A DNA stretch of 64,000 nucleotides from an uncultured Candidatus Saccharibacteria bacterium (GCA_964490395.1 CAZBAS010000001.1:19815-83814); one strand, 5' to 3'. Positions 3,897 to 26,963 are shown, counted from the stretch's first letter. Made by a program: numbers and translations. Notes: a model not told the origin generated them from the letters alone.

Positions 3897-4274
3897 ATGA
3901 AGATAACAACATCAACCGGAACGCTCGTACTGCTACTTGCAGTGTCCATTGCGCTTATGCCCACCATTTCAGCCCTGGATAAATTCAATGCAGAGATAGT
4001 TCCCCCCGTAGGGACAGTTGCAGGTATTGCCATTGGAGGCGTTATTGAGCCAACCCCCACAAACACCCTCTATGCAGAATTGCAAAACGAGAAAACTGTC
4101 CTCGACAGCAGAACCAAAGAGCTGGACGCCAAGGAGCGATACCTTAATGCTGCAAATCAGCATAAAACCTACATACTCGAATTCGCCGTTGCTATACTAT
4201 TTTGCTTAGTTTTAATAAATTTCTATTTTGATATACGCAGAACAAAAAAGGAAGTCACACAAATCAATACATGA
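3897..4274 (+). CDS. Small bitopic membrane protein (N-terminal signal/TM, coiled-coil, C-terminal TM).
   Basis: Hydrophobic N- and C-terminal segments. Overlaps the next gene by 4 nt (atga), so it is first in an operon of surface-protein genes. Confidence 0.5.
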   Translation: MKITTSTGTLVLLLAVSIALMPTISALDKFNAEIVPPVGTVAGIAIGGVIEPTPTNTLYAELQNEKTVLDSRTKELDAKERYLNAANQHKTYILEFAVAILFCLVLINFYFDIRRTKKEVTQINT

Positions 4275-5794
4275 AGTACACTAAAAAAATATCCCTACTA
4301 CTCCTAACCGCTTTGCTGTGGCATCTCTGCACACCCTTGCACACAGCCATAGCCGCGCAGGAACTACTCAACAGAAAAGACACGTTGGGCAGTTCAATCA
4401 TAGACACTGCATCAAGTCACGACATACTGTTCACCACAACCACAACCATACCTGCTTCGGGTAAAATTGTATTTACGCTTACGCCCGGACAATTCACCAC
4501 TCCCCCTAGTATGAGCGAGAGCGATGTAGATGTTTTAGTAAATGGCGTAAATAAAAACATCGGAAGCACGCCAGGTTTAGGCGCGGGGAGCAATTTGGGC
4601 GTTGTGGTAACAACTGGGACAAGCGGATCCATCACCATCACCCTCAACGACACAGATGCCATAAGTAGCGGCAGTACAGTTGAGATTAAAACTGGCAATA
4701 TTGCAAACTTTCAGACCGGAGGAGTATTTAACATAATAAACCCTTCCACAATTGGGTCTTACCTTGTTACATTGACCACCTACTCCCCAGCTCTAGCAGT
4801 TCTAGACCAAAGTGGCATTGGCCTAGCCACTTCTGTCCCCGTAGGGATAATGGGAAGTAACATAGTAGAAACCCCTACTTTCAATCCTGCAAGCGGCACC
4901 TATACGAACCCAATCACCGCTTCCATACTCTCTACACCAGGAACAACTATCTACTACACCCTAGACGCAACAACGCCCACTACAAGCAGTCAAATATATA
5001 CAGGACCTTTATCCATAACTACATCTACCATTATTAATGCAATTGCTACTGCCCCGGGAATGTCTGACAGCGCCGTAGGCACAGCGAGCTATATAATTAG
5101 CAACGGCCAAACAAATACTGGTGGTGGTGGCGGCGGAGGTGGCGGTGGTGGAGTTGTGTACACCCCACCACCGGGTGAAACACCCATACAAGGGAACAGC
5201 GGCGGTACCCTTTCGACTCAGTGTGGTAATGGTGCGCGACTCACCCTCGTTGTGCCACCCCACGCCTTCGAAGGAGAGCAGTTCATAATTATTTCTTGTA
5301 TGGCATGGAGCACCTTTCCCATTAAGACCGGAGCACCAAAGGGCGACGCACTAGCAGATACTATTTTTGGGATTACCGTCCGCGATGTATACGGTACCTT
5401 GTCTACGAGCCCAAAAATTCCACTTTCCGCAACCATTGAGTATACACAAGGGCAAAGCTCCCAATATGCAGCACCTTTTGTGGCAACGCAGTACACCATA
5501 GGAGGCGTGTGGACGGTATTACCTACCCCCTCTGCACAGAACAATAACCAACAATTCGCCCTACAACTACCTACCGTTGGCCCCGTAGCCGTGCTCGCTA
5601 CGAAAGAACCACGCAACCAATGCAGTACAATCCCCGCTGACCTTAATTGTGACGGCCGAGTCAACCTTACCGATCTAAGTATTTTGCTCTATTATTGGCA
5701 ACAAAAAGGCGCTGGAATAAAAGCTGATATTAACAAAGATGGTATAGTTAATCTAATAGACTTCAGCGTAATGCTCTATTGGTGGACAAATTAG
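4271..5794 (+). CDS. Secreted protein with a C-terminal dockerin-like module and a chitobiase/Fn3-like domain.
   Basis: Signal peptide. Segment TIYYTLDATTPTTSSQIYTGPLSITTSTIINAIATAPGMSDS (CHB_HEX_C-like). Gly11 tract. C-terminal duplicated Ca-binding segments DLNCDGRVNLTDLSILLYYW and DINKDGIVNLIDFSVMLYWW, typical of dockerin type I. Confidence 0.65.
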   Translation: MKYTKKISLLLLTALLWHLCTPLHTAIAAQELLNRKDTLGSSIIDTASSHDILFTTTTTIPASGKIVFTLTPGQFTTPPSMSESDVDVLVNGVNKNIGSTPGLGAGSNLGVVVTTGTSGSITITLNDTDAISSGSTVEIKTGNIANFQTGGVFNIINPSTIGSYLVTLTTYSPALAVLDQSGIGLATSVPVGIMGSNIVETPTFNPASGTYTNPITASILSTPGTTIYYTLDATTPTTSSQIYTGPLSITTSTIINAIATAPGMSDSAVGTASYIISNGQTNTGGGGGGGGGGGVVYTPPPGETPIQGNSGGTLSTQCGNGARLTLVVPPHAFEGEQFIIISCMAWSTFPIKTGAPKGDALADTIFGITVRDVYGTLSTSPKIPLSATIEYTQGQSSQYAAPFVATQYTIGGVWTVLPTPSAQNNNQQFALQLPTVGPVAVLATKEPRNQCSTIPADLNCDGRVNLTDLSILLYYWQQKGAGIKADINKDGIVNLIDFSVMLYWWTN

Positions 5795-5798
5795 CCAC

Positions 5799-6761
5799 AT
5801 GAATACACATTATTTAAAATTTTTCTTAGCAACCGCCCTACTTGTTTTTACAGGAACACCCGCTGTATCCAGGGCAGCCAACACCAACATTAGCCTTTCC
5901 AGCCCCCACACCGCAAGCGTTGGTCAGAGCATTCGTATACGCGTACTAGTTTCAAGCGACCAAAGCCTTAACGCGGCACAGGGCACAGTACAATACCCAA
6001 AAGAATTTCTTTCGGTAACGGGCATCGCAACAGGAAAATCAATTATAAAATATTGGCAACAAGAGCCAAATAACGACCCGGGCACCGGCACCATAAGTTT
6101 TACGGGAGGATTGCCAAACCCTGGGTATACAGGCACGGGAGGCACTGTTTTCGACATTACCGCACGAGCGCTTGCTGAAGGAAAAGCAACGGTTGTGTTT
6201 GGAGAAAACACTCAAATTCTAGCAAATGATGGCAACGGTAGCGTGCTCGACACCAGTAAACAAGGCGCGACCATACAAATTACAAAAGCCACTACACCCG
6301 ACCAGGAAACAACACCACCAGCCGAACCCGCAAAAGATACAACACCCCCTACCGACCTAGAACTTCTCATAGGGCACGATGGAAATTTATTTAACGGGGA
6401 CTGGTTCGCGGTCTTTCAAGCAACCGACACTGAAAGTGGCATCGACCACTATGAAATAGCAGAGACCTCACAAAAAACGCCATACCCTGTTGACAATGAG
6501 TGGATAAAAGCAACAAGCCCGTACCGCCTACAAGAGCAAGTTAAGAATACTAAAATATTTTTTAAGGCTGTAGACAAAGCAGGAAACCAGTCCATAATTA
6601 GCCACGATCACATTGTAAAGCCACCCCTTTTGCAAATGATTACTACCCAAACCGATTGGAGATTTCTTGTAATTCTGGCTATCCTCCTCTTACTCGCCGT
6701 CGTACTACCCATATTTGTCTACAACAGAAAAAAACAACAAGCGGGCACTGTACAAAAGTAG
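5799..6761 (+). CDS. Cohesin-like domain protein with a C-terminal TM anchor.
   Basis: Signal peptide, then a ~140-aa region with cohesin-like strand pattern (GQSIRIRVLVSS...GTVQYPKEFLSVTGI...GTVFDITARALAEGKATVVFGE). Ends with the hydrophobic stretch LVILAILLLLAVVLPIFVY plus a basic tail. Immediately follows the dockerin gene. Confidence 0.55.
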   Translation: MNTHYLKFFLATALLVFTGTPAVSRAANTNISLSSPHTASVGQSIRIRVLVSSDQSLNAAQGTVQYPKEFLSVTGIATGKSIIKYWQQEPNNDPGTGTISFTGGLPNPGYTGTGGTVFDITARALAEGKATVVFGENTQILANDGNGSVLDTSKQGATIQITKATTPDQETTPPAEPAKDTTPPTDLELLIGHDGNLFNGDWFAVFQATDTESGIDHYEIAETSQKTPYPVDNEWIKATSPYRLQEQVKNTKIFFKAVDKAGNQSIISHDHIVKPPLLQMITTQTDWRFLVILAILLLLAVVLPIFVYNRKKQQAGTVQK

Positions 6762-6827
6762 AAAAATGTGATATTATTATTTCATAAAATATTTTTTGTC
6801 AGTTAAGAAATAAAAAGTAAACGTGTT

Positions 6828-7955
6828 ATGGCAAACCGACTAGCCTTCTACTTGAAAAAGAAGTTTAAAAATACAACCAGCAAAGCTCTTGTCGCCACAC
6901 TAGTGCTCAGCACAATTCTTTTTGGTGCCAATACAGCCAATGCAGCTCAAATTACTTCATTCTCAGATACGCTCACAAGGCTCAAAGCAAGCACGGCAGC
7001 AGACCACACCATATTCTTGGTCAGTCCTAGTGGTATTGCAGCAGGCCAAAGCATGACACTTACTTTTGGAGCAGCCTTTACTACAAGCTCAATAGTTCTT
7101 GCAGATATCGACTTTGCTACGGGAAACAGTGGTACTTGTACGAGTGCCACCTATACTGAGCAAACCCTAGCAGCTTCCCCTTCTGGTGCTACTTGGGGTG
7201 TTACCTTTTCAAGCTCAGTGTTAACCCTCACCTCAGGAACAGGCACCTCAACGGCTGGTAACTGCATGCGCTTCAGAATAGGGACAAACGCTGTAACTGG
7301 CAGCTCTGGTACCCATCAAATCACAAATGGTACAGCTGGCGCCACAACCGCAACGGTAGTAGCGAACATAAACTCAAGCACCGATACGGGTACACTGTTT
7401 ATTCCAATCATCACCAACGACCAAGTAACTATTAGCGCTACGGTTGACCCGACTATTTCTTTTAGCATAAACAACACCTCTGTTAGTTTCGGTTCTCTTT
7501 CTTCATCTACAGGCCGCTGGGCTACTACCGGTGGTGGCGCAAACGCCTCAGCTGCAACAGACCCTACCGCGGCCAACACTGCTCATACCTTAACTATAGG
7601 AACAAACGCCACCAGTGGATATACAGTTACCTACAACGGAGCCTTGCTTACAAGCGGTGCAAATACTATAGCAGCGGCTACAATCACTGGGGATAGCGAC
7701 GGAACACAAAACTCAAACCAATTTGGGCTCTGCGGTAAGGGCACCTCCGGTAGTCCAACAGTTGCCTCTGGCTATGTATGCAGTACCAACAGTGACTACA
7801 ACTTTGTCGCAAACACAACTACCACCCTTGCCAGCGCAACGGCCCCAGCCAGCAGCGACGTAGTAAGCGTAGCGTATTTGGCCAACATCGCGAGCTCGAA
7901 GCAAGCTGGTACATATACCACCACCCTGACCTACGTCGCCACCGGTAATTTCTAA
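6828..7955 (+). CDS. Secreted Thr/Ser-rich beta-sandwich protein with a WxL-like / SCPU-like C-terminal domain.
   Basis: Signal peptide. C-terminal ~170 aa has the pattern VTISATVDPTISFSI..SVSFGSL...HTLTIGTNATSGYTVTY....AGTYTTTLTYVATGNF*. Paralogous to 9062..10156. Confidence 0.5.
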   Translation: MANRLAFYLKKKFKNTTSKALVATLVLSTILFGANTANAAQITSFSDTLTRLKASTAADHTIFLVSPSGIAAGQSMTLTFGAAFTTSSIVLADIDFATGNSGTCTSATYTEQTLAASPSGATWGVTFSSSVLTLTSGTGTSTAGNCMRFRIGTNAVTGSSGTHQITNGTAGATTATVVANINSSTDTGTLFIPIITNDQVTISATVDPTISFSINNTSVSFGSLSSSTGRWATTGGGANASAATDPTAANTAHTLTIGTNATSGYTVTYNGALLTSGANTIAAATITGDSDGTQNSNQFGLCGKGTSGSPTVASGYVCSTNSDYNFVANTTTTLASATAPASSDVVSVAYLANIASSKQAGTYTTTLTYVATGNF

Positions 7956-7968
7956 ACGTTTTACCACC

Positions 7969-8997
7969 TTGTCTAGCATTCGCTTCATATATAAGCTTTT
8001 TACTATCAGCACTCTGTTGCTGATAGTTTTTATTACCTACCCGCAGCACGCCAGGGCAACCACCATTTCACCAGTAAAACTCGAGCTAGCGGCAAACCCT
8101 GGAGAGACAATTCAAGGGTCAATCAAGGTAATAAATGAAACCCAAAGCTCCGAGGTACTCTACACTGCAACATTAAACTTTGAGCCAAAGGGTGATGAAA
8201 GTGGTGAACCAAATTTCGTACCAACCAAAGACGGCCTAGCGGCTTGGGTAAAAACTGATTATTCCATCACCCTGGGACAAAAAGAGCAAAAAAACCTGCC
8301 TTTTATCATCCAAATTCCCATGGGAACTGAACCGGGGGGATATTTTGGGGCCATTTTTACTTCTACAACACCGCCAAAAGAAAATGGTAGCGGTGGGGTA
8401 ATGCTCACAGAACGGGTCGGATCCCTTGTGTTATTGCGTGTAAACGGAGCACTCGCCGATTCCGGAGATATATTAGAATTCGGTACAAAAGATAAAAAGT
8501 TTTGGCATACCACCCTGCCCATTACTTTCTACTACCGATTTCAAAATAGCGGCCTAGATCGCGTTAGACCGCTCGGCGATATTCTCATAAAAAATTGGGT
8601 TGGACGTACCTCAAAAATAGTCCCCGCCAATCCAGAGGGCGGAAACGTGCTACCTAAAAGTATACGCAGGTTTGAATCGAAATGGATTAACCTATGGGGC
8701 AAGGCAAACAAAGAGGATATTGCCCAATTCCCAACCCCGCCAGAACAGGGCTTCTGGAAAAAAGTGTCGTACGAAGCAAAATATTTTGCCTGGGGTCGCT
8801 ACAAAATTCAGCTCAACCTTGCATATGGTTTCACGGAATTCCACTCAACCAGCGCCACCACAACAATTTTTGTCTTCCCGTGGCACCTCACACTCGTAAG
8901 TACACTTGCCGCAATTACATTATTCTTCATACTACGCTTCGCAATACGTAGATACAATCGCTGGATAATAAAAAAGGCAACCAAGAAAACAAAGTAA
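7969..8997 (+). CDS. DUF916/DUF3324-like (CscA-like) cell-surface protein with a C-terminal TM anchor.
   Basis: Signal peptide, ~300-aa extracellular domain (PVKLELAANPGETIQGSIKV...EPGGYFGAIFTSTTPP...), and C-terminal TM plus basic tail (ITLFFILRFAIRRYNRWIIKK). Paralogous to 10161..11123 and 11120..12097. Confidence 0.5.
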   Translation: MSSIRFIYKLFTISTLLLIVFITYPQHARATTISPVKLELAANPGETIQGSIKVINETQSSEVLYTATLNFEPKGDESGEPNFVPTKDGLAAWVKTDYSITLGQKEQKNLPFIIQIPMGTEPGGYFGAIFTSTTPPKENGSGGVMLTERVGSLVLLRVNGALADSGDILEFGTKDKKFWHTTLPITFYYRFQNSGLDRVRPLGDILIKNWVGRTSKIVPANPEGGNVLPKSIRRFESKWINLWGKANKEDIAQFPTPPEQGFWKKVSYEAKYFAWGRYKIQLNLAYGFTEFHSTSATTTIFVFPWHLTLVSTLAAITLFFILRFAIRRYNRWIIKKATKKTK

Positions 8998-9007
8998 CTA
9001 TATAAAT

Positions 9008-9038
9008 AACACCCTTGTCTGAGCTGGGGTGTTTTTTA
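9008..9038 (+). terminator. Rho-independent terminator.
   Basis: Hairpin aacaccc-ttgtctgagctg-gggtgtt followed by a T run. Confidence 0.55.
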
Positions 9039-9061
9039 TATATCCGTGATAAAATGATTAC

Positions 9062-10156
9062 ATGGAACTCGCAAAAAAAATCTTGCTGCTATGCTCTCTT
9101 ATAACGCTTATTTTATACCCCTTTGGCCTGCACGCAGAGACGTTATCAAGCACAAATTATACCGTAGAGAACCCCAGCGTGGATTCAGGCGGTGAAAATA
9201 GCAATTCAACAAATTATAATGAGCGAGAATCCATCGGGGGAAGCAACGACAGCGCTGCGAGTTCAACAAACTATCGAGCATTCCCCGGATTCGTCCAACA
9301 TGCCTACCCAGGCATTCCCGGGCAACCAACACTCGTGAATACTGGTGGGGTACTGTACAACGCCCTAGATTTTATTATTGCTACTGCAGGCAACCAAACT
9401 GACACTACATACGCCATTGCCATATCGAGCGACAACTTTACCACAACCAACTTCATTCAAGCAGACGACACCGTAGGCAGCAGCGCTGTATGGCAATCCT
9501 ATACATCATGGGGCTCAGGCACAGGCCAACGAGTTACAGGGCTCAGCGCGAACACCACATATAAAATTAAAGTCAAAGCGCGCTATGGCTTTGATACCGA
9601 AACTGCTTATTCTATTACCGCCAGCGCTACTACAGGCGGGCCAACCCTCACAGTATCGTTTGCGGGCGTAAACTCAGGCACTACCATATCTGGAGCGACC
9701 ACTACCATTACGAGCGCAAGTAATACTATAAGCTATGGCTCACTAACCCCGAACGTAACAGCGGTAGCAGCTCAAACCATAACGGTAAGTACAAATGCAA
9801 CAGGCGGCTATACTACAACGCTGCAGCAAGACGGCGATCTACGCAACAATGGTGGAGATTCCATAAGTCCCGTATCGGGCAGCAACGCCTCACCCGCAGC
9901 ATGGCCCACAGGCATCACCACTGGGTTTTTTGGATATCACACTACTGACGCCACCCTCTGTACAGGGACCGCGGGAAGATTCACTTCAAATAACACGTAT
10001 GCTGCGGCCACAACCACCCCTTCAGAAATTGCCTGTTCTACCACAACGGTTACAAACGAACAAACGTCATTAGTATATAAAGTGGAAATTGGAACTGGAC
10101 AAGACGCAGGAACATATCAAAACATAGTTACCTACATAACCACTGCGCAATTTTAA
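9062..10156 (+). CDS. Secreted Thr/Ser-rich beta-sandwich protein, paralogue of 6828..7955 (WxL-like / SCPU-like C-terminus).
   Basis: Signal peptide. The C-terminal pattern TLTVSFAGV...ISYGSL...TITVSTNATGGYTTTL....AGTYQNIVTYITTAQF* parallels that of 6828..7955. Confidence 0.5.
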   Translation: MELAKKILLLCSLITLILYPFGLHAETLSSTNYTVENPSVDSGGENSNSTNYNERESIGGSNDSAASSTNYRAFPGFVQHAYPGIPGQPTLVNTGGVLYNALDFIIATAGNQTDTTYAIAISSDNFTTTNFIQADDTVGSSAVWQSYTSWGSGTGQRVTGLSANTTYKIKVKARYGFDTETAYSITASATTGGPTLTVSFAGVNSGTTISGATTTITSASNTISYGSLTPNVTAVAAQTITVSTNATGGYTTTLQQDGDLRNNGGDSISPVSGSNASPAAWPTGITTGFFGYHTTDATLCTGTAGRFTSNNTYAAATTTPSEIACSTTTVTNEQTSLVYKVEIGTGQDAGTYQNIVTYITTAQF

Positions 10157-10160
10157 ACTC

Positions 10161-11123
10161 ATGCATTACTCTTGGCGGGCCCTTATTGTATGGATACTTA
10201 TTATGGCTAGTTTTTTACTGGCCCCTGTTGGATACGCCCAAACAAATGAAGTGGCGCCAGAACTTGAAGTGCAAGGCGTGCGCATAACCCCTTTTATATT
10301 TGAACAATCCGTGCAAAAAGGAGAATCATTCACAGGAGACATTACTCTTACGAACACTACGGCAGCTCCGGTCACGCTTTCATTAGCCATTCGCGACTTC
10401 ATCCCCGCTGGCCGGCACGGCGAAGTCCGATTCCTACCAGCCAACCAAGAAACAGACTCTCATTTTTCCTTATCAAATTGGGTAGAAATACAGAAGCAGC
10501 CAGATTACACGCTTGACCCCGGACAAAGCACGCGTACTACATTTCGCATACATGTCCCAACTGATGCAGATGACGGCACTCACTACGGGGGCATACTCTT
10601 CTCTTTTAGCGAGGGAAAAGCAGAGAACGGCACAACGGTCATTCAAAGCATTGGCGCTATTCTCATTGCAAAAATTGGATATGCCAACGGTAGCGGTACA
10701 GTTGAAACTTTTACCACCCCGCAACACATATACGCCAGCAGCACTGTTCCATTTGTGGCCACTTTTCGTAATACCGGAAATGTGCATTTTAGTCCTAAAG
10801 GTAAAATAGAAATCAAAAATATCTTTGGCAAAGTCGTCGGCCTTGCTTATATAAACGAAAATGCGCAAATTAGCCTTCCTGACACAGTAAGACAATTTGA
10901 AAGTGTTTATAAAGGGAAATTTATGGTGGGAAAATATACTGCCACACTTACCCTTGTTTTCGGAAATCCAAAACTGGAAGCCCAAAAAACGATAGGGTTT
11001 TGGGTGCTGCCATGGAAATCACTTATAAAATTTGGATTATTGAGCATACTTGTATTAGCCCTGCTCATATTCGCAATAATCCGCTATAATACATGGGTTA
11101 TTAAACACGCCCCCCGATCATGA
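10161..11123 (+). CDS. DUF916-like (CscA-like) cell-surface protein with a C-terminal TM anchor (paralogue).
   Basis: Shares VRITPFIFEQSVQKGESFTGDITLTN and DGTHYGGILFSF with the corresponding PVKLELAANPGE... and EPGGYFGAIF segments of 7969..8997. C-terminal TM LSILVLALLIFAIIRY. Confidence 0.5.
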   Translation: MHYSWRALIVWILIMASFLLAPVGYAQTNEVAPELEVQGVRITPFIFEQSVQKGESFTGDITLTNTTAAPVTLSLAIRDFIPAGRHGEVRFLPANQETDSHFSLSNWVEIQKQPDYTLDPGQSTRTTFRIHVPTDADDGTHYGGILFSFSEGKAENGTTVIQSIGAILIAKIGYANGSGTVETFTTPQHIYASSTVPFVATFRNTGNVHFSPKGKIEIKNIFGKVVGLAYINENAQISLPDTVRQFESVYKGKFMVGKYTATLTLVFGNPKLEAQKTIGFWVLPWKSLIKFGLLSILVLALLIFAIIRYNTWVIKHAPRS

Positions 11124-12097
11124 ACCCAGTCTTGCGTTCAGTACTTGTAGTCAGCTTTATTTTTGCCATCATTGCTGGGACACTACCCCGCACTGCCAAC
11201 GCGCTTACTGCCTCCCCTATACGTATAGAGCTAAACTCAGATCCTGGTAAAACAATAACTTCGCAGTTTAAGCTTTACAACGACGGCAAAACAAGCGAGA
11301 CCTACTACGTAATTTTCGAAAACTTTGAAGCCAAAGGAGAAGACGGCAGCCCAACTCTAGTTGCCGGCACAGACGGCCTTGCCCGATGGATGTCCACAAC
11401 GGAGTCTGTCACTATAAACCCAAAAGAGTCAAAAACACTACCCCTCACTGTTACAATACCCAAAGATGCCGAACCCGGCGGGTATTTTGCTGCCATTCTA
11501 GCCTCTACCATTCCACCAACACCTGAAAGCGACCAAAACGTATTACTTGAAGCACAGGTGGGAACCCTTGTTTTATTACAGGTAAACGGAGATTTTAAAC
11601 AAGGAGTAGACATACTAGAGTTTGGAACTACAAGCAAAAAGCACTGGTTTACAGCGCTTCCTATAGAGCTCTATTACCGCTTTCAGAACGCAGGAGACAG
11701 CTGGGTTAAACCCATAGGAGACATTATTGCCAGGAATTGGTTTGGTAAAACAACCAAAGTTATCCCAACAAATGAGGATCGGGGCAACATCCTACCCCGC
11801 AGTATTAGAAAATTTACCACGACATGGTACGGAAAAGATAAAAGCGGCCAAATGCCCAAAGGCTTTTGGAAAAAAGTAGGCTACGAGTGGAACAATTTCG
11901 CTTTTGGGAAATATTCCATGTCCTTAAACTTGGCCTATGGCAACAGTAGCGACCAAGCAGCCAGAGCAACAACAAGTGTGTGGATATTTCCTTGGCATTT
12001 ATTGCTGGCCGGGCTTGTAGCAATTGTGCTAGTATTCGGAATTTCCATCTCGCTCGCCGTTGTTCTGGTCATGAAACTACTAAAACGAAGAAAATAA
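11120..12097 (+). CDS. DUF916-like (CscA-like) cell-surface protein with a C-terminal TM anchor (paralogue).
   Basis: Segments SPIRIELNSDPGKTITSQFKLYN and EPGGYFAAILASTIPP are nearly identical to those of 7969..8997. The start overlaps the previous gene by 4 nt. C-terminal TM plus KRRK tail. Confidence 0.5.
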   Translation: MNPVLRSVLVVSFIFAIIAGTLPRTANALTASPIRIELNSDPGKTITSQFKLYNDGKTSETYYVIFENFEAKGEDGSPTLVAGTDGLARWMSTTESVTINPKESKTLPLTVTIPKDAEPGGYFAAILASTIPPTPESDQNVLLEAQVGTLVLLQVNGDFKQGVDILEFGTTSKKHWFTALPIELYYRFQNAGDSWVKPIGDIIARNWFGKTTKVIPTNEDRGNILPRSIRKFTTTWYGKDKSGQMPKGFWKKVGYEWNNFAFGKYSMSLNLAYGNSSDQAARATTSVWIFPWHLLLAGLVAIVLVFGISISLAVVLVMKLLKRRK

Positions 12098-12114
12098 TCT
12101 CTCACATACATCTA

Positions 12115-12145
12115 AAGCGCCCTCTGTGGGGCGCTTTTGTTTTAA
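12115..12145 (+). terminator. Rho-independent terminator.
   Basis: Hairpin agcgccc-tctgt-ggggcgct followed by tttgtttt. Confidence 0.6.
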
Positions 12146-12483
12146 TAGGAAAATTGGTAGCAACTGTTAAAACAATAATGCTTATTTACTGACGTAGTTA
12201 GTAAATTAAAAGTTACTTTCCACGCAAGCCCAGCTTCACCAACATATACGATCGCAAAAATACACTTTCTAATACTTACGACCACACTTGCTTAAGCGTT
12301 GTCTCAACCATGAAACATAGTAATATGCCTCAGATTTCATACCACACAGCTATTATTGGTTCATGGGTATAATGTAGTTTTTTGTTTTATATAAGCAATA
12401 TTTATGAATAAAACGTATTACCAAGGAATGATTTATATCAAAAACCCTTTTATATTCAAGGAAAAATTTTGAGATGCGCTCTA

Positions 12484-12512
12484 TTGACCTAATGATAAAA
12501 CTGTGATAAAAT
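12484..12512 (+). promoter_or_regulatory. Sigma70-like promoter (TTGACC, 17 nt spacer, TAAAAT) in the long AT-rich leader upstream of the HTH gene and the giant protein gene.
   Basis: ttgacc-taatgataaaactgtga-taaaat read directly. It lies ~210 nt upstream of the 12721 start codon. Confidence 0.4.
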
Positions 12513-12720
12513 ATACATAAGTTTTGTTAAGTTGTGTGTAGATAAAAAACCTAACACCACCTACCAAAAGCTACTTCATTCCGCATAGCGGAAAGAAACC
12601 AAAAGAAAAAATAATTCAATAAGTGGTATTAGTTATTCGTTTTCAGTTTAGTTTTTTGAATGCCTATTTGGTGTTCGTCTAGCAGAAACGAGCAAATATA
12701 ACCACAAGGAAACAAACACC

Positions 12721-12924
12721 ATGCAAAATATGCAGTTACCAGAGCTGCTAACCTTGCGAGAAGCCTGCGAGCTCCTTCACGTTCACCCAAACACGCTCAG
12801 AAATTGGGAAAAAGAGGGAAGACTGTCCGCAGTTCGCATAGGCAGCCGCCGAGACCGCCGCTTCACCAAAGAAGCGCTGGCCCAGCTCTACACCTCTCTT
12901 GCAACCCAATCAGCCGCTTTGTAA
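12721..12924 (+). CDS. Small helix-turn-helix DNA-binding protein (excisionase/MerR-type HTH_17 family).
   Basis: The motif LLTLREACELLHVHPNTLRNWEKEGRLSAVRIGSRRDRRF is the typical excisionase-family HTH. The gene is 67 aa and lies immediately upstream of the giant ORF. Confidence 0.6.
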   Translation: MQNMQLPELLTLREACELLHVHPNTLRNWEKEGRLSAVRIGSRRDRRFTKEALAQLYTSLATQSAAL

Positions 12925-13043: not shown

Positions 13044-16000
13044 GTGGCAAAACACAATCTGAAAACTATTCTAAATTTCAGAAAGCGTACAAAGCTGTAT
13101 GCTCTTTTGGCATTGGCGGGTGTAGCACTCAATTGGATGCCGTTGTTTGCCCCACCGGCCCAAGCCACGGTTCCAAAATACATAAACTTCCAGGGAAAGC
13201 TCACAAAAGTCTCTGATGGTACTAACGTCACGAACGGAAGCTATGCTTTTGAATTCAAACTATACGATGCGAGCACCAGTGGCACCCTACTCTGGACAGA
13301 AACATATGACCAACCAAGTGGTGCGTGTACTAAACTAGCAGTAACAAGTGGGGTATTCAACGCCAAACTTGGTTCTTGTGCGTCCCTGGCGAGCATCGAC
13401 TTTACCGGCGGATCAATATATCTCAGTGTAAACTTTGCTCCCACAGGTGTTAGCTATGACGGTGAAATGTCGCCACGCAAGCAACTCGTAGCCTCTCCCT
13501 TTGCATTAGTCGCCAACAGCGTATCCGGTGATGGACCTATTAATACAGTTAATTCTTCTGCTACGGCCTTAACCGTAGCAAAATCCGGAAGCAACTATGG
13601 CCTCCAAGTTGATACCAGCACTGCCTCTGCTGCGACAGGTCTTAAAATAACCTCAGCAGCTGCAGCGAGCGGTATTGCCTTGTCGGCTATTTCTTCTGGA
13701 ACTAATGAAAGTATTACTCTCGACGCCAAAGGAACAGGCTCAGTCAGCCTCGGCGCAACCTCTACCGGTGACATCCTCCTTGGTGGAGGCTCGGGTTCCA
13801 CTGGTTGTACAGTTACCAACTCAACCGGTGCATTTGCTTGTACGGCTGGCGGCTCGTTCACAACCCTTGGTCTGAGCGGGGCAATTACCGGAGCGACCGG
13901 GATTACATCTTCCGGCACCATCAACTTCTCTACTCTTTCCGCCTCAAGTGCCGTCTATACCGACGGCTCAAAAAACCTCACCTCAACAGCACCAACAAGC
14001 GGCGCCATTGGCTACTGGTCTAGAAGTGGCACCACACTTCAACCTACGACCAGCAACGATGCAATCTCAATAACGGGCAACTCTGGAGATATTGCCACAC
14101 TTACTTCCTCTGCAACTGAAGCCTCTAACAAAACTTTAAATATTTCTCAGACTGGTGCAACAAGTGGTACTGACTACGGAGCATATATTTCAAACACAGG
14201 AGCAGCAACAAACAATGTTGGTTTATATACCACCACCTCTGGGGCAACCAATAACTATGCTGCGATTTTTGATAGTGGAACAGTAGGGTTTGGTACAACT
14301 GCCCCCACAGCAGGCAAATTGCACATTCTAGCAGCAAACACTACACAACCCGCAATTGCAGTACAGCAGCCAAGCGCGAACAACAACTACAGCATATTAT
14401 TAGCATCTACAAACAACTTTGGCTCCAACAACCTTGATTTAAACTATCAAGATGGTAATGGTATTCGGATGATTAGCAACCTAAATATGAATATCAGCGC
14501 TGGAAGCGCGCTTAATTTAACATCCGGCACCGCATCTACGTACGCCCTACCTTCAAACACCGCAAGTGCTTTACGCTTTACAGATGGGACAAACTCGTAC
14601 CACACTATCGATACGAGAACTACAAACTCCACATCCTCCGCGCACACTTTCGCCACAACTGCACCCACCATTGCCTCATCTAGTACTTCCGCGTATTTAC
14701 TTACGACTTTTACCCCAGGCACCCAAACATACACCGGGACCACCAACACCACCAGCACTGGTGCTACTGCCCCACTGAGCGTACTCTTCAACCAGCCAAC
14801 CATAGCAGGCAACGGCACCAGAACTATTACTGAAACTTCTAACACCGTTATTAATGGTCCAACCATTGCATCTTCTTCTTCAGGTACAGAAACAATTACT
14901 AGCGCCTATGGACTTAATATCCTTTCCGGTTCTGCACTAAACGGCACTGGTGGTGCGGTTACTAACGGTGTTGGTCTTTCAGTAAACGCCCCCACTGGCG
15001 CAACCAATAACTACGCAGCCTTGTTTAACGGCGGCAATGTAGGCATTGGAAACACCGCCCCGACTGAGACGCTCGACGTAACGGGCAACGCAAAAATACG
15101 CGGCACTTTAAAGATCCGAAGCGCTAGCAATACTGGAAACCTAAGCATTCTTGATGCTGGAGGTGGTGTAGCCACAATAGACAACACTGGTAATAGTATT
15201 CTCGCTATAAATGGTGGCTCTATCAGCACAAACTTTGTGACTGGCAACGTTGGTATTGGTATTTCCAACGTCACCACACCAAATGCTGCATTACAAATTG
15301 CCACAAACGGCGCAGCTTCAACACCAGGCGTACGACTTGATGGTACCTGGTACGCTGCAGGAACAAGCACTACTAATAAACCACAATTATTAGTCGAACC
15401 AACTGGCACAACCTCTACTACCTGGTCCGGCGCAGGCACTGGCATTGGCGCCAATGCCGCAAGTGGTTTTACCGGCAACTTACTTGACCTGCAAACAAAC
15501 AATGCAAGCAAGTTTTCAGTAGCAAGCGACGGTACTGTAATTACAGCCAGTACTATTTTTGGCGGCAACGACATTTATGCTGGATCAAGCAGCTACTTAG
15601 CTTTTAGCAGCCGAAGTAAAATTAGTTCCCCTGCCGACAGCAACTTACTACTCACCAACGCTGCTGCAAACGCATTTAACTTATTGCAGTTCGGCGGCAC
15701 TTCTTCTTCTTTCCCTGCCCTAAAACGCAGCACAACCATCCTACAAGCGCGACTTGCAGATGATAGTGGGTACACATCATTTGACGCAGGAAATTTCCTC
15801 CTCAGCGGCACAAACATAAACACCGCGGGTACACTCACTAATGTTGCGTATAAAAATGCAGCCAATACTTTTACAGCTAATAATATCTTCCAGCCAACTG
15901 TCACTACCGGCACTGGGGCCACTGCTGGTGTACAAATTGCAGCAAACAGTTTAACCACCGGTAATGGACTAGATGTTTCTTCTACCTCACTCACAACAGG

Positions 16001-19000
16001 AAACCTAGCAGCGCTCTCTTCTTCATCCACCGCTGGTGGAGCGTCTGGTACTTCTACCCTCCTAAACTTGTCTCGCACTGGTGTTAATAGTAATACCGCA
16101 CACACTGCGTATGGACTTTATTCTACCGTCACAAACACAAACGTGACCAGCGGCACAAACATTGCTGCTTATCTTTCTGCTAGTGGTGCGACTACTGCAA
16201 ATTACGGCCTAATTGTTGCTGCTGGAAATGTAGGGATAGGAACAACAACACCTAAAGGGCTCCTTGAAATTGACGGATACGCGGGACAAACAATACTAAG
16301 AGACCTAGGAGCCGCAGCAGACGAAGGTGGGTGGTCATTTACCACTTCCGCAACCACCCTCACTCTTGGATCAACAAACGACGCCAACAATGCTGGCGCA
16401 AGCCTTCTTGTCGCAAAACGTGGCACCGGCACAACTATAACAAGCTTATACTCCCCTTCGACTTCTACTAATTTTGGGCTGGGCGACTCAACACCGGCCT
16501 CCCTACTTACTGTAGGCAACGGCGACCTTTTCCAAGTAAACTCATCGGGTGCAATTGCTGCTGCCACTGGAATTACCTCTTCTGGAACAATTAACTTCTC
16601 TACTCTTTCCGCTTCTAGCGCGGTCTATACCGACGGCTCAAAAAACTTAACCTCTACCGCACCAACAAGTGGCGCCATTGGGTATTGGTCTAGGAGCGGC
16701 ACCACTTTGCAACCAGCAACAAGCAATGACGTTGTAGCAATTTCTAGTAACGCTGTTGCTGCGGGCGGAGTTCTCGATATTACATCTTCTGGCACAGTTA
16801 CGAGCGGCAATAACGCAATTAGAATCACTGCAAACTCAGTAACCACTGGGGTAGGCGTTTCCTTGTCTACAACTGGAGTAACTACTGGAACAGCATTAAA
16901 CATTACCGGCCCTAGCACAACAGGTGTAACCACTGGCTTGTCATCTGGCTTCATCAAGGCAACAAGCGACGTTGGATCAGGTGGAACCGGCGGGGTGCTG
17001 GCGTACTTAGCACCAGACTACAGCTCCGCTTCTGCCGCAACTAGTTATGGCCTTGAAATAAATGGAACGGATAGCACAACGGTAAGTAATAACAATTACA
17101 ACCTTTACAGTAATTTGGCTATGAGCGGCGATGCTACGAGTAAACTCGGGGTAGCTATCTACGGCAATGTCAGCTCGAGTAGTACACTAGCTGATACTAC
17201 ATATGGCGGCCTATTTGGCACCTCTGTAAGCGGGGCAATATCCACCGGAAGCAGAAACAACTACGGAATATACGCGCAACCAAACGTCAGCAGCGCTAAC
17301 ACAGGTGGTATTACAAATGTGTACGGTGCCTTCCTAGCACCCGCTTCATCGAACTCTACTACTGGCTCTACAGTAAACGTGTACGGCAGCTATACTACAA
17401 ACCAAGCACTCTTAACAACAGGTGGCACCATAAACAGCTATGGCAACTATATTGCCAATGGGTCGGTAAGCACTACTGGAACTTCGACTCAATACGGTTT
17501 ATATGTGGAATCTCAAACTGGCGCAGATAATAACTACACCGCGGTGTTTGCGGGTGGAAACGTAGGAATAGGAACAACAACGCCTACGGCCTTTCTTCAT
17601 GTCGGCTCTAATGGTGCAGCATCTAACCCTGGACTTAAGCTGAGCGGCTCATGGTTTACCGGTGGCGACTCTACCACGACTAAACCACAGGCTTTAATAG
17701 AAGCGAGTGGGGCAACTTCTTCAGGGTGGTCCACAAGCGGCACTGGCCTTGGTATAAACGCACCGAGTGGTTTTACGGGAAGAATGATAGATGTAAAACT
17801 AAATGGAACCAGCTCCTTTGCCCTTAATGAGGCTGGAGGCATTTCAATCTTGGGCCAAGGAGTTACTAATATTGGGGCGGCCCAAGCCTACTGGTATCAA
17901 CCATCAGGAGCTACTGTATCAATTGGAAACAACGGCGACACTGGGGCAAGTAATTTATTACTACGGGCTGGAGCAAGCGGGTCTTCTGGTGGAAACATCA
18001 CATTTAATATAAACAACTCTAATACCGGAATATGGAACTCCGCAGGTTTTGGTATTGGTACCGGCACACCAATAGACCCACTCTCTATTAGCACCGCAAT
18101 AAACGCATCTGCGACACACGCACTGTTTAATCTTTCAAACACCGCTCTTTCCAGTGGTTCGGCTAATGGTACGTACATAGGCGCAAACCCTGCGGCTTTT
18201 ACTGGCAACTTCTTCGACTTTCAAGTTGCGAGTTCTAGTGTAGCTAAACTCACCAGCGCTGGTGCATTAACCGTTTCATCTTGTACTGGTTGTGGTAGTG
18301 GAGCCACTACATTCGACGCAATTGGAGATCCCGCTGGTAATGGCGCTATAAACATGGGTACCACTGTTCAAACCCTAGACTGGGGAGCCACCACCACAAC
18401 CGACAACTTAAGCATTACTTCCTCTGGTACTGGCATAACCTCTGGTTCTGTATTAAAAGTCACCTCGGCCACTACTGGCGCAGTTTCAAATGGACTTATT
18501 CAATTCACCGCAAGTGGTGCATATACATCAACTGGCGGGTTATTGAGTGTAACCGGCAACTCTACCGCAACTGGTACACTCGCAAAGTTTTCTGCTACCG
18601 GTTTAACTACTGGTACAGGGCTAACAATTGCCGGTGGTACGGCAATGACAACTGGCACAGTACTAGGCGTGAGCAGTGCAACCTACAACCACGCCAACGG
18701 TGAAACTGGAAATATGGCTTCACTAATCTTCTCAGACGCAACCACAACCGCCGGCGCCGTAACCAGCACCACCAACGGATTAAACATCGCCTCAACCATA
18801 GCAGCAACAACCAGCACCAGTGGTACAAAAACTGTGAACGCAATTAACATTGCCTCCCCTACTCTCACTTCTTGTACTGGTGGTGCTAGTTGTGTCTGGA
18901 ACGGTGTACAAATTACTGCTCCAGCGACTACTGCTAGTTTTACTTCTACTGCACTCAAAGTAGTTGCGAACTCTTTAACCACCGACACAGTGGCTAGTAT

Positions 19001-22000
19001 TTCTGCAACAGGTCAAACAAGTGGTATCGGGCTCTCCATAACTGGTGGTGGCGCCAACCTTACTGCTTCCGGTAAACTCATAGACCTGCAAATGGGTGCA
19101 GCCACCGTGGGTGCAGGATTAAATATTCTTAGCTCGGGTGTATATACTGGCGCGGGCTTAGTACAGCTCACTGCTAACTCAGCCACCAGTGGTGTAATCG
19201 ATAGTATTTCTGGAACAGGATTAACTTCTGGATCAGCAGTTAGAGTAACTGGGTCTGGTGCAACCATGACTACTGGTGGTGAACTCATTGACCTTGTCCT
19301 TGGCGCCAATACTGTAGGGGCGGGAATGACCATCACCAGCACGGGTGCATATACAGGTACCGGTGCAGCTGATGGACTAATTAACATAGTCGCCAACTCA
19401 CTTTCGAGCGGATTTGGTTCCCAATATTCCTTCACTGGCATGACCAGTGGTACCGGCATAAAAATAACCGGTGGCGGCGCAAACTTAACTGCTTCTGGTA
19501 AACTGATAGACCTTCAAATGGGCGCAGCTACTGTTGGTGCGGGTTTAAACATTGCCAGTTCTGGTGTATATACGGGCGCTGGCCTCGTACAACTAACTGC
19601 GAACAGTGCAACCTCTGGTGTAATAGATAGAATCTCCGGAACAGGATTAACTTCTGGATCAGCAGTTAGAGTAACTGGGTCTGGCGCAACCATGACCACT
19701 GGCGGAGAATTGATCGATTTAGTGCTTGGTGCCAATACTGTTGGTGCAGGCCTTACGGTTACCAGCACTGGTACGTATACGGGTAGCGGCGCTGCTGATG
19801 GATTAATTAACGTCGTAGCAAACTCGCTCACCACAGGACTCGGTTCACAATACTCATTCACTGGTATGACAACGGGCACCGGAATAAAGATGACTGGCGG
19901 TACCGCAATGACCACCGGTGGGCTAATACAAATCGGAAACGGTACATATAACCATGTCAACGGTGAAACGGGTAGTATTGCTAAAATTCTTGTTACGGAC
20001 GCCACCACAACCGCCGGTGCGGTTACGAGCACCACTAACGGATTAAACATTGCCTCAACCATAGCAGCAACAACCAGCACAAGTGGAACGAAAACAATAA
20101 ATGCTATCAACATAGCCTCCCCTACTCTTACCTCTTGTGCGGGTGGTGCAAGTTGTGTGTGGAATGGTATGCAAATTACCGCTCCGGCAACCACTGCAAG
20201 TTTTACTTCTACCGCGCTTAAGGTGGTGGCGGATTCGCTGACCACCGATACCGGCGTGAGCATTTCTGCTGCCGCATTAACTACGGGCAACGCCTTAAGC
20301 ATTACCGCTGGTGGCGCAACCGCACTAACTAGTGGTGCAGGACTCAAAGTAACCGGACCAAGCGGGGCTGCTGCAATAGCGAACGGCTTAGTACAAATTA
20401 CTGCAGCTGGTGCGTATACAGGCACAGGCGGACTGTTAAATGTAACCTCTGCGGCCTCTACAGCAGGAACACTTGTTAACTTTACCAACAACACAGCCAG
20501 CTTTACCGGTACGGCTGTTAACATCTCGACCAGCGGCATTACAAGCGGCTCAGCAATGCAAATTACAGGAGGAAGCTCTATGGCTGCGGGTGGACAATTA
20601 CTTGGTCTAAGCATTGGCACGGCAGGTGCAGGTACTGCCCTTAATATTGTTGCCAATGGTGGAACATATACCGGAACCGGGCTTCTAGCATTTAATAGTA
20701 ACAGCTTAACATCCGGAACCATGATGTCGGTAGCGGCAAATGGCTCCGGCCAAACCAGCGCAAAATATATCGACATTGCCCAGACAGGCGTTACCACAGG
20801 GTTTACAGGAAACCTAATAAACCTTAGCTCTACCTCTACAACTGGCGCGGCAACGTTTATAAACCTAACAGCAAACTCTTCTACGGTTGGGGTTGGCCAG
20901 GCTATTTCTATGACCGGCCTAACAACCGGCTCTGCCCTAACCATTACCGGACCAAGCTCGACCGGAGTTACGGGGAGCGGCATCTTAAAAGTTACTGCTG
21001 ACGTAGGGTCTGGTGGCACCCAAGGACAATTGGTCAGTTTTTCTCCGGACTACAGCGCGGGCACCGCGAGTACGGGCTACGGTCAAACCATACTCGGAAC
21101 CGACTCAACATCTACGGCAAACTCAGACAACAACCTATATTCCAGCCTAGCTTTAACAGGAAATGCCGCAAAAACAGGATACGCATTTTATGGCACAGTG
21201 ACCTCTAACTCAACCACTGCTGACACAACCTATGGCGCAAACTTTGACACCAGCATAACCGGAGCAATTTCCACTGGAACCCGCAACACCATTGGTGTCA
21301 GAAGCGCCCCCGCCACTTCAGGCGCAAACACAGGTGGAACCACACAACTGTTTGGTGGAAACTTTGCCCCAAGCAGTACTGGTTCTACCACAGGCGCTAC
21401 AGTAAATGTATTCGGCGCCTATGTAAGCAATACCGCCACCCTTACCACTGCCGGAACCATTAACAGTTACGGGCTGTATGTAGACTCTGGAACCACAAGC
21501 ACCACCGGAACCTCTACTGCATATGGCGCCTATATTCTAGCCCCGACAGGCGCAGACACAAACACGGGACTACTCATTAACACTGCAAACGCAGCAAGCA
21601 TTGGTCAAGTAATAAAGGCATCGACAAGCCAGACTGCTGACCTACTCCAATTCCAAAACTCTTCAGGCACTGTGTTAATGTCCCCAGACTTTGCCAACAG
21701 CAGTTCTTTGTGGAACTTCTACAACACAAGCGGTACAAAAATGGCAGTCATGGGATACGATAACGCCAACAATGCAGCCTTCTTCCAGTCCATAGGCATT
21801 GATGGAGTACTCCGTGCCCGCGACGCTATTAATGGAAGAGATTACGCCAAAATTAATCTGAATTACACTTCGGGTTATATATCTCTTAGTACCAACACCG
21901 GTGCGGATGCAGTAGAACGCATGCGCATAGATGCAACTGGTGCGGTTGGTATTGGCGCAAGCATGACCGCACCAAAACAACCCAACGGATTACAAATGGC

Positions 22001-24110: not shown

Positions 24111-25481
24111 ATGAACAATCAACAGATCTGGCAAGCCATCTTAGGACACCTAGAAGTCTCCCTTTCCAAAGCCAATTTTAATACTTGGCTTAAAAATACC
24201 CACATCATTGAGAAAACAGACGACAACATAACCGTTGCCGTACCCTCTACCTACCACCGGGATTGGATTGCTAGCAAATACAATGCCGAAATGCTGAAAG
24301 CACTAAAAGGTATTGCCCCAGAAATAAAGACCATCAAATACCAGGTAGGAACCATTGTAAAACCTTCGCCCGCCCCTATCCAAACACAGCAACAGCAGCA
24401 AAACGATACAACTTCTGCAGCCCCGTCATACCCTGCGCAAGTTACAACCCCGAACGCCCAGTCAAATATCAACCCGAAGTATATTTTCGACACATTCATT
24501 ATTGGTAAAAATAATGAACTCGCTCATGCCGCCAGTCTTGCAGTGGCAAAAAACCCAGGAACACAGTACAATCCGTTGTTTATCTATGGGGGAGTAGGAC
24601 TAGGCAAAACCCACCTTATGCACGCAGTTGCCAACAAGCTCCTCTCCGAGAACCCGCGAGCAAAAGTTCTATACCTAACCAGCGAAAAATTCACTAACGA
24701 CTATATAAACGCCATCTCAACCAAAAAAATGGAAGACTTTAAGCAGCATTACCGCACTGTGGACATGCTACTCATAGATGATATTCAGTTTATTGCTGGA
24801 AAAGAAGGAACTCAGGAAGAATTCTTTCACACATTTAACGAACTCCGCGACAAAGGCAAGCAGATCATAATCACTGCTGATAGGCTTCCTAAAGAAATCC
24901 CGGCCATAGAAGCAAGGCTTGTGAGCCGATTTGAATGGGGAATGGTCGCAGATATTCAAGCCCCAGACTTAGAGACGCGCATGGCCATATTGCGCACAAA
25001 GCTACAGAAAAGGGGGACGAACCTACCAGAAGAAATAGTGTATTACATAGCAGAGAACATACAGAGCAATGTGCGTGAACTAGAAGGCGCGCTCAATAGA
25101 TTGCTGGTTTTCCAAGACATGGAAAACCGTACTGTAAGCCTGGAGCAAGCCCAGAGTATGCTCCAGGGAATGATGAATAATAAGAAAAAAGGCGTTACAG
25201 TAAAGAAAATAGTTTCCCTTGTTGCCGAATTCTACAACGTTACGGGAGAAGACCTTATAAAACAGTCCAGAAGACAAGAATTCGTAAAACCCCGGCAAAT
25301 TGCCATGTTTTTAGCCAGACAAGAACTTTCAAGCTCATTTCCTAGTATTGGTGAATTCTTTGGGGGGAGAGACCACACAACTGTTATGCATGCTGTAGAA
25401 AAAATTCAGAATATGCTCGCAGAGAAAGAGTCGTTCAAGCAAGAGGTAGACTTGATTTTGGATAAACTCTACACGACATAG
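24111..25481 (+). CDS. dnaA: Chromosomal replication initiator protein DnaA.
   Basis: AAA+ Walker A GGVGLGKTHLMHAV, sensor motifs, and C-terminal DNA-binding domain (KPRQIAMFLARQELSSSFPSIGEFFGGRDHTTVMHA). Confidence 0.95.
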   Translation: MNNQQIWQAILGHLEVSLSKANFNTWLKNTHIIEKTDDNITVAVPSTYHRDWIASKYNAEMLKALKGIAPEIKTIKYQVGTIVKPSPAPIQTQQQQQNDTTSAAPSYPAQVTTPNAQSNINPKYIFDTFIIGKNNELAHAASLAVAKNPGTQYNPLFIYGGVGLGKTHLMHAVANKLLSENPRAKVLYLTSEKFTNDYINAISTKKMEDFKQHYRTVDMLLIDDIQFIAGKEGTQEEFFHTFNELRDKGKQIIITADRLPKEIPAIEARLVSRFEWGMVADIQAPDLETRMAILRTKLQKRGTNLPEEIVYYIAENIQSNVRELEGALNRLLVFQDMENRTVSLEQAQSMLQGMMNNKKKGVTVKKIVSLVAEFYNVTGEDLIKQSRRQEFVKPRQIAMFLARQELSSSFPSIGEFFGGRDHTTVMHAVEKIQNMLAEKESFKQEVDLILDKLYTT

Positions 25482-25769
25482 AGACCTGAATAACGAACGA
25501 CGAATTAAGCACGGAAATATCTTGGGGAAAACTGACGTATAAGAACCTCATAGCTAGTTGATAACTTTGACCCAATAGACCAGACCAATACTTTTCCCCA
25601 TTTAGTAATCCACCCTATGCACAAGTTATCCGCTAAAACCGCTGAGCCCAAAATGTATTTTTGCTTAATTCCTAATTCATAATTCGTCATTCCGCATTCG
25701 GGTTACCCACATATCCACCGCCCTTATTACTATTACTAATTTATTTATATATTTATTTAATAATAATCT
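25482..25769. other. Candidate oriC in the dnaA-dnaN intergenic region, with DnaA-box-like 9-mers and an AT-rich unwinding element.
   Basis: taatccacc (25606..25614), ttatccgct (25627..25635) and atatccacc (25711..25719) each differ from TTATCCACA at 2 positions. AT-rich tract tttatttatatatttatttaataataat (25741..25767) directly upstream of dnaN. Confidence 0.4.
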
Positions 25770-26876: not shown

Positions 26877-26889
26877 TTTAGTCCGAAGT

Positions 26890-26945
26890 ATGAATCAAGA
26901 ATTACGAAGTGTGTGTTCTTGAGTTCATAATTCTTGATTCATTAT
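26890..26945. repeat. AT-rich inverted repeat (atgaatcaagaattacgaa ... ttcataattcttgattcat) in the dnaN-recF intergenic region.
   Basis: ~19-nt arms with 2 mismatches. Same motif family as 2789..2855. Confidence 0.55.
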
Positions 26946-26963
26946 TCATAATTCTACTTTGCT

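Follow-up and report, generated by a model that had tools for sequence, protein, structure and literature searches.

We analysed a window of 64,000 nucleotides (nt) of DNA from an uncultured Candidatus Saccharibacteria bacterium (GCA_964490395.1, CAZBAS010000001.1:19815-83814), in which positions 6828-12097 carry five open reading frames (ORFs) that probably form a compact Pam-type pilus operon of a Doudnabacteria-like bacterium of the Candidate Phyla Radiation (CPR). The Pam pilus of Ca. Mycosynbacter amalyticus, a member of the Saccharimonadia, is a filament built by donor-strand exchange; its PapD-like chaperones are anchored in the membrane, and it has no usher (Troman et al., 2026, bioRxiv 10.64898/2026.03.03.709456). 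Cryogenic electron microscopy (cryo-EM) of its filaments revealed the pilins PamA and PamB, whose C-terminal domains are incomplete and immunoglobulin-like (Ig-like) and are completed by a donated strand; the pam operon also encodes the PamE pilin, the PamT tip, the RbmA-like PamR, a terminator anchored by a transmembrane (TM) segment, and PamC and PamD, FimC/PapD-like chaperones with an unusual C-terminal TM helix (bioRxiv 10.64898/2026.03.03.709456). Here we name each gene by its first position: 6828 would encode the major pilin, 9062 a PamT-like minor pilin, and 7969, 10161 and 11120 a family of TM-anchored proteins. A preliminary description of this DNA, which had placed the five genes at these same coordinates, read them as Csc/WxL-like surface protein pairs of a kind not described for CPR bacteria. 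The latter statement is outdated because the Pam pilus was described in the 2026 preprint, and models for it are now part of NCBIfam release 20.

Two secreted proteins share a Pam-type C-terminal domain

The gene at 6828-7955 (+ strand) encodes a protein of 375 amino acids (aa) with 33% Thr+Ser and a C-terminus ending in ...QAGTYTTTLTYVATGNF. When scanned with NCBIfam release 20, it matched NF058581 (CPR_Pam_pilin_C, cutoff 55 bits) with 56.2 bits (E 4e-15) over model positions 12-148 of 148, and the same model was matched by 47 of the 47 aligned homologues, with a best E of 1e-24. Judged by its sequence, 6828 is a Pam pilin, a member of the Pam pilin C-terminal domain family. Its AlphaFold2 (AF2) model, built from the 47-sequence alignment with a predicted local distance difference test score (pLDDT) of 88.3, shows a signal helix, strands between residues 44 and 192, a linker, and strands between residues 253 and 373. 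We therefore divide the protein into a Sec signal peptide (aa ~1-39), an N-terminal beta-sandwich (aa ~41-193) and a predicted incomplete Ig-like acceptor domain (aa ~214-375). The conserved inter-domain linker (aa ~199-213, nt 7422-7466, QVTISATVDPTISFS) probably serves as the donor strand. Of all 12-residue windows in the family, the best conserved one lies in this linker (residues 202-213, ISATVDPTISFS) and the second one in the final strand (360-371), while the pair Cys104-Cys146 is kept in 40-43 of the 47 sequences. Conservation of the linker and the C-domain strand, together with paired cysteines, has likewise been described for PamA and PamB (bioRxiv 10.64898/2026.03.03.709456).

A Foldseek search of the PDB with the whole 6828 model gave just poor two-domain matches to MSCRAMMs and integrins, and a Pfam scan of 6828 and 9062 found no domain in either. 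The preliminary description had also considered a Csu/SCPU-like pilin sandwich. That idea came mechanistically closer, since the Pam C-domain has an incomplete Ig-like fold that a donated strand completes, but the SCPU family itself (PF05229) was unmatched by all 47 members at E<=10. Regarding distribution, the named homologues are all CPR metagenome-assembled genomes (MAGs), from Paceibacterota, Kerfeldbacteria, Falkowbacteria, Nomurabacteria and the Parcubacteria group. The closest GTDB representative carrying a 6828-type pilin is a Ca. Doudnabacteria MAG with 78% identity; the scan of the genome collection returned one contig, from Doudnabacteria.

The second secreted protein, a candidate PamT-like minor pilin of 364 aa, is encoded at 9062-10156 (+ strand), contains 29% Thr+Ser and ends in ...DAGTYQNIVTYITTAQF. 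It consists of a signal peptide, an N-terminal module of S(T)NY repeats, an FN3-like middle part (aa ~85-190) and a Pam-type acceptor domain (aa ~218-364) with a conserved C300-C325 pair. The C-terminal ~137 aa of 6828 and 9062 are 31% identical (E 7e-6), in agreement with the preliminary description, which had both proteins as secreted, Thr/Ser-rich and sharing a C-terminal domain. Comparison of the two families with hhalign gave a probability of 96.5% (E 9e-10) confined to this domain; the donor-linker region of 6828 found no aligned counterpart in 9062. The PamT model NF058579 (CPR_pilus_PamT, equivalog cutoff 240 bits) scored 38.1 bits against 9062, over model positions 7-83 only (protein aa 8-83), and 5 out of 6 orthologues showed the same partial match; NF058581 scored 22.2 bits, under its cutoff. 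Across lineages, members of the 9062 family are 59-62% identical, compared with ~50% for the major pilin. By analogy with PamT, a tip pilin with a single acceptor domain and lacking a donor strand, 9062 would most likely be located at the pilus tip.

The TM-anchored proteins are homologous to WxLIP

The remaining three genes lie on the same strand and encode paralogues. Those at 7969-8997 (TTG start, 342 aa) and 11120-12097 (325 aa) are putative copies 1 and 2 of a membrane-anchored PapD-like/WxLIP-like chaperone and share 45% identity over 317 aa (E 5e-98). The one at 10161-11123 (320 aa), a divergent DUF916/WxLIP-type TM-anchored protein, is full-length related to 7969 (27% identity, E 6e-24) and to 11120 (24%, E 1e-19). 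Each protein carries a hydrophobic signal segment at its N-terminus and a second hydrophobic segment at its C-terminus (aa 3-25 and 300-327 in 7969), the latter followed by a basic tail. Three paralogous partners of ~320-340 aa with this architecture were thus recovered as first described, and the two motifs quoted for them, P..(L/I)EL..PG.T and EPGGYF, belong to the most strongly conserved parts of the family. For 11120, AF2 gave a model (pLDDT 91.3, predicted TM-score (pTM) 0.76) that consists of a signal helix (3-21), two Ig-like domains (29-155 and 163-289) and a TM helix (292-324), with a low-confidence loop (130-146) preceding the last strand of domain 1. The 10161 proteins form a conserved family of their own, with a fixed position in the cassette and an extra conserved N-terminal segment (..ELEVQG..) ahead of the first domain, which recalls the extra strand described for PamR.

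Two further observations concern these proteins. The start of 7969 can be read in two ways: translation from the TTG at 7969 yields a normal signal peptide (MSSIRFIYKLF...ARA), while gene callers on near-identical contigs start the gene at 8017, 16 codons downstream, for a product of 326 aa with a truncated signal. Besides, both the 7969/11120-type and the 10161-type families have a conserved RYN...IK motif directly past the TM helix, on its cytoplasmic side (8935-8997 and 11060-11123). Such a motif would be unexpected in a mere anchor and may be a contact with a cytoplasmic or membrane partner.

PF06030 (WxLIP_PGBD, formerly DUF916) matched 10161 with 34.4 bits (cutoff 27.3) and 11120 with 17.8 bits, and 7969 gave no Pfam match at all; among 52 family members, 27 were matched at E<=0.01. 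PF11797 (DUF3324) was never matched directly by the TM-anchored proteins. We then compared the CPR family profile with a profile of 8 Firmicutes WxLIPs aligned from plasmid-borne WxL loci and obtained an hhalign probability of 98.4% (E 5e-15) over 223 columns covering both Ig-like domains; single sequences reached 89.9% (10161), 76.7% (11120) and 3% (7969). In a sequence search of the PDB with the CPR profile, the top match was EfmWxLIP1, with a marginal E of 0.026. According to these results, the 7969/10161/11120 family is clearly homologous to the WxLIP/CscA proteins of Firmicutes (DUF916, DUF3324 and a TM helix), as the preliminary description had proposed from their architecture. Structure prediction, suggested there as a check, gave two beta domains for 6828 and two Ig-like domains plus a TM helix for 11120; among the profile hidden Markov model (HMM) searches suggested alongside it, PF06030 found its match, and PF13731, PF11797 and PF05229 did not.

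This CscA/WxLIP-type partner coincides with the membrane-anchored PapD-like chaperone of the Pam preprint, the text of which does not mention WxL, DUF916 or Firmicutes (bioRxiv 10.64898/2026.03.03.709456). On the WxL side, a loop of WxLIP is predicted to turn into a strand that completes the WxL sandwich (Hassan et al. 2023, PMC10599100), which we read as chaperone-type complementation in all but name. Full-text literature searches found no paper linking WxL clusters to donor-strand systems, and the homology between Pam chaperones and WxLIP may be new.

The secreted proteins are not detectable WxL proteins

The preliminary description had likened the C-terminal domains of 6828 and 9062 to the WxL domain. 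PF13731 (WxL) found no match in 6828, 9062 or 46 homologues at E<=10. When full-length and C-domain-only pilin profiles were compared with WxL alignments of 9, 11 and 20 sequences, hhalign probabilities were 5.9%, 2.2% and 3.9%, the last of them from a 109-sequence diversified C-domain profile against 20 WxL domains. Reciprocal HMM scores between pilins and WxL domains were the same as those of shuffled sequences. We consequently rejected 6828 and 9062 as WxL proteins, the Pfam, hhalign and reciprocal HMM tests all being negative, and the WxL-like character first assigned to them has to be withdrawn (PF13731 unmatched in 47 members, hhalign 2-6%). hhalign did line up three motifs collinearly (I.FG.L, TNA..GY/GW and Y..TLTY/TLTW), at P 0.01-0.02 only; homology of the client domains to the WxL domain is a possibility and not a finding.

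These tests bear on another explanation of the locus, in which WxLIP-like TM proteins would permanently hold Thr-rich clients by strand complementation in a non-filamentous, WxL/Csc-like surface complex serving adhesion or carbohydrate capture. This is the current picture of the Firmicutes WxL clusters, where the structure of a WxL-WxLIP complex is available (PDB 9i25) and AF2 predicts the WxLIP strand completing the WxL sandwich (PMC10599100). The strong homology of the TM proteins to WxLIP speaks for it, as does a gene set that, with a small client, a larger one and TM partners, resembles the small-WxL/large-WxL/WxLIP set; a Pam-type C-domain, moreover, also ends giant proteins beside WxLIP-like genes (see below). 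Nevertheless, we consider such a complex unlikely: the WxL domain is undetectable, the clients instead match the Pam pilin C-domain family, founding members of which were seen as filaments by cryo-EM, and the top conserved element of 6828 is the linker, which is sensible for a strand donated to a neighbour.

The five genes form a conserved cassette

The five ORFs of the Pam-type locus are separated by gaps of 13, 64 and 4 nt, and the stop of 10161 overlaps the start of 11120 by 4 nt. The unit is closed by a strong intrinsic terminator at 12114-12137 (+ strand), 3' of the last stop codon; this hairpin, a 10-bp stem with 6 G-C pairs followed by TGTTTT, is the best terminator-like hairpin of the region. 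A scan of the region for sigma-70 promoters gave scores no better than those of shuffled sequence.

The order pilin, chaperone, PamT-like protein, DUF916-type protein, chaperone, MerR/HTH_17 protein and giant protein was also found at the homologous loci L004, L013 and L015, and L014 keeps it minus the last chaperone. The genes flanking the cassette vary between these four loci. The five-gene arrangement is far beyond chance; the same order recurs on unrelated contigs. In the window, the MerR/HTH_17 gene (12721-12924, + strand) encodes a small protein of 67 aa (PF12728 with 44.6 bits, PF13411 with 34.9 bits), a possible regulator, and occupies the same position in all four loci. It is followed by a gene for a giant, secreted, fibre-like protein of 3560 aa (13044-23726, + strand) with a signal/TM-like N-terminus; its sole Pfam domain is a Peptidase_S74 intramolecular chaperone of tail-fibre type (aa 3157-3209, E 7e-16), followed by a Pro-rich tail. 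Giant genes also lie 3' of the cassette in the four loci and 5' of it in L003, and a protein resembling tail fibres is a conserved neighbour of pam (bioRxiv 10.64898/2026.03.03.709456). The pilin C-domain HMM did not match the 3560-aa product, and we rejected it as a 'large pilin' because the Pam C-domain is absent. That the conserved cassette includes a MerR gene and a giant fibre gene may be new. Family membership, the predicted folds, the conservation pattern and this synteny are shown by the present work.

A proposed model for pilus assembly

The assembly steps are drawn by analogy from cryo-EM and AlphaFold work on Ca. M. amalyticus. All five products would be exported by Sec. After export, a strand of a chaperone (7969 or 11120, each with two Ig-like domains and tethered to the cytoplasmic membrane via its C-terminal helix) would cap the open C-terminal domain of each pilin. 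This cap would then be swapped for the linker strand of the next pilin by donor-strand exchange, and the filament would therefore grow from its base without an outer-membrane usher. With its extra FN3-like domain and no recognisable donor linker, the PamT-like 9062 would most likely end up at the tip. As for 10161, it could be either a third chaperone, dedicated to 9062, or a terminator and membrane anchor in the role of PamR.

Several points weigh against assigning the locus to the Pam pili. 6828 is barely over the NF058581 cutoff (56.2 versus 55 bits), 9062 is far under the cutoffs of both Pam models, and an NCBIfam scan of 7969, 10161 and 11120 matched no model. The genes of ATP synthase, reportedly typical neighbours of pam, did not turn up among the window ORFs scanned. 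What we propose for donor-strand exchange, the order of the subunits and the part played by 10161 is inferred, and the likeness to the Pam system of M. amalyticus comes from NCBIfam models and published descriptions.

One could also argue that the Ig folds are only superficially pilin-like and that the genes encode an unrelated surface structure: a sortase-dependent pilus of Gram-positive type, a type IV pilus or an S-layer-like coat. No product between 3897 and 12097 contains an LPxTG motif, none of the five proteins has a prepilin-peptidase motif, and no sortase or usher family was found among the neighbouring window ORFs scanned. A phmmer search with 6828 gave weak matches to sortases (E 0.08-0.45) that were driven by composition. 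Since an unrelated structure would in addition leave the match to a curated Pam model and the chaperone-like partners unexplained, we hold it to be very improbable.

The Pam C-terminal domain also ends giant proteins

Searching 1.84 billion representatives with 9062 by phmmer, we retrieved 1040 relatives at E<=1e-3. Among the best 150 of these 1040 (P0280-P0429), 93 carry the C-domain, in 92 cases at the extreme C-terminus, ending in ...AG.Y...I.YI.VP.F. More than half of these C-terminal carriers (52/92) are multidomain proteins of 450-4319 aa, and the NCBIfam Pam models miss most of the large ones. In all four loci that we sampled (L021-L024), the gene of the large protein adjoins one or two genes for WxLIP-like TM proteins. 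This arrangement mirrors, by analogy, the small-WxL/large-WxL/WxLIP logic of Firmicutes (PMC9772566). That giant proteins end in the Pam C-domain may be a new observation.

One of these loci, L021 (Logan SRR21358790, a 30.8-kb contig with 55.6% GC), has a cluster at 5532-12545 that comprises a pilin, a chaperone and a C-domain protein of 1514 aa. Also on this contig are hisA/hisF/hisI-type genes, carboxyltransferase genes of acetyl-CoA carboxylase and a PALP enzyme, a content unusual for CPR that hints at Pam-like systems outside CPR.

On a broader scale, we tentatively consider that the CPR Pam pili and the Firmicutes WxL/Csc clusters might represent two branches of a single ancient system for surface assembly without an usher, belonging to bacteria that lack an outer membrane, although we regard this as a doubtful extrapolation for now. 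In such a system, a membrane-anchored PapD-like chaperone (WxLIP, equivalent to PamC/D) would cap a C-terminal, strand-deficient acceptor domain borne by small subunits or giant adhesins, and the Pam C-domain would be the counterpart, possibly a diverged homologue, of the WxL domain. If this is true, WxL proteins would be strand-complemented or even polymerising subunits, and this same module would serve CPR bacteria to attach giant proteins to pili or to the membrane.

The Pam pilus, thought to mediate contact with host cells, is the sole CPR-specific filament of known structure, and the locus presented here would be a version streamlined to five genes and conserved in lineages of Doudnabacteria and Paceibacteria type. 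The homology to WxLIP gives the Pam field a structural template in the crystal structures 9i1y and 9i25, the WxL complex included, and the WxL field gains a mechanistic hypothesis, chaperone-like donor-strand complementation. The presence of the C-domain on giant proteins suggests a general device for mounting surface proteins, beyond the building of pili.

Genomic surroundings of the pilus locus

Upstream of the pilin, 4271-5794 encodes a secreted protein that has CHB_HEX_C/Fn3_assoc domains and, at its C-terminus, a type I dockerin scoring above cutoff with 32 bits. Directly 5' of the pilin, 5799-6761 encodes a TM-anchored protein with a weak OmpL47-type barrel match; we rejected it as a cohesin or as PamR, finding no Pfam or PDB sequence support beyond that match. 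Dockerin- and cohesin-bearing genes also flank the Pam-like clusters of L003, L023 and L024, which suggests that cohesin-dockerin surface display is associated with these pili.

The window is chromosomal, as it contains yidC, dnaA, dnaN, recF, ruvB, polA and uvrB. The dnaA-dnaN-recF cluster lies at 24111-28055 and the cumulative GC skew is lowest near 24-26 kb, which places the chromosomal replication origin inside the window, ~12 kb from the pilus operon. A T2SSE/PilB-type ATPase is encoded at 35113-36762, far from the operon. Among the other surface or interaction genes, at 42878-43891 and 51185-57319, are those of a RhuM/Fic protein, a GH1 glycosidase and a protein of 1546 aa that combines GH39, Big_7 and F5/8 type C domains.

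Comparison with known systems

Compared with sortase-dependent pili, the locus lacks LPxTG motifs in its products, and no sortase is present among the window ORFs scanned. With the chaperone-usher pili (Pap, Fim, Csu, CFA/I) it shares an incomplete Ig-like pilin domain, presumed donor-strand complementation and exchange, and a putative tip subunit without a donor strand, but of the hallmark components of those systems the chaperone fold alone is common to both. The usher, PapD_N/PapD_C, fimbrial and SCPU families of Pfam had no matches in the locus. There is no outer-membrane usher here and the host has no outer membrane; the chaperones are membrane-anchored instead of soluble, and 6828 has an added N-terminal domain, with its probable donor strand in an internal linker rather than in an N-terminal extension.

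The WxL/Csc clusters of Firmicutes comprise small and large WxL proteins plus WxLIP (CscA; DUF916, DUF3324 and a TM helix) (PMC1534035, PMC9772566, PMC10599100; PDB 9i1y, 9i25). Their partners match ours in having a signal peptide, a pair of Ig-like domains and a TM helix with a basic tail. In both, a flexible loop precedes the final strand of domain 1, the site at which strand insertion of WxLIP into WxL is predicted. In both systems the client domain is always C-terminal, on small proteins and on giant multidomain ones, and the genes are adjacent. Unlike them, the clients here have no detectable WxL domain or W-x-L motifs, the corresponding strands reading GY.V.Y and TLTY; the locus has no LPxTG-anchored (CscD-type) partner, PF11797 is unmatched and the host belongs to CPR. 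The WxL system is, in addition, viewed as a peptidoglycan-bound complex and not as a filament.

Finally, in comparison with the Pam operon already described, our locus has one full-length pilin gene instead of three (PamA/B/E), a 9062 protein of 364 aa with an FN3-like insert versus a PamT of ~241 aa, chaperones too divergent for any NCBIfam model, and a syntenic MerR/HTH_17 gene; the window ORFs scanned yielded no ATP-synthase or CorB/MFS neighbours, and the lineage is Doudnabacteria-like, whereas the preprint emphasises Saccharimonadia and Microgenomatia. In turn, the two systems have in common a two-domain pilin, predicted to be Sec-exported, with a Pam C-domain, a conserved linker and last strand, and disulfide pairs; the AF2 layout of 6828 (signal helix, two beta domains and linker) is the architecture of PamA and PamB. 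Also shared are the PamT-like N-terminal module of 9062, three TM-anchored proteins with two Ig-like domains that compare with PamC, PamD and PamR, the absence of an usher, a giant fibre-like gene beside the cassette, and a CPR host. The locus is thus a new and compact member of the Pam group, from a lineage other than the one studied so far.

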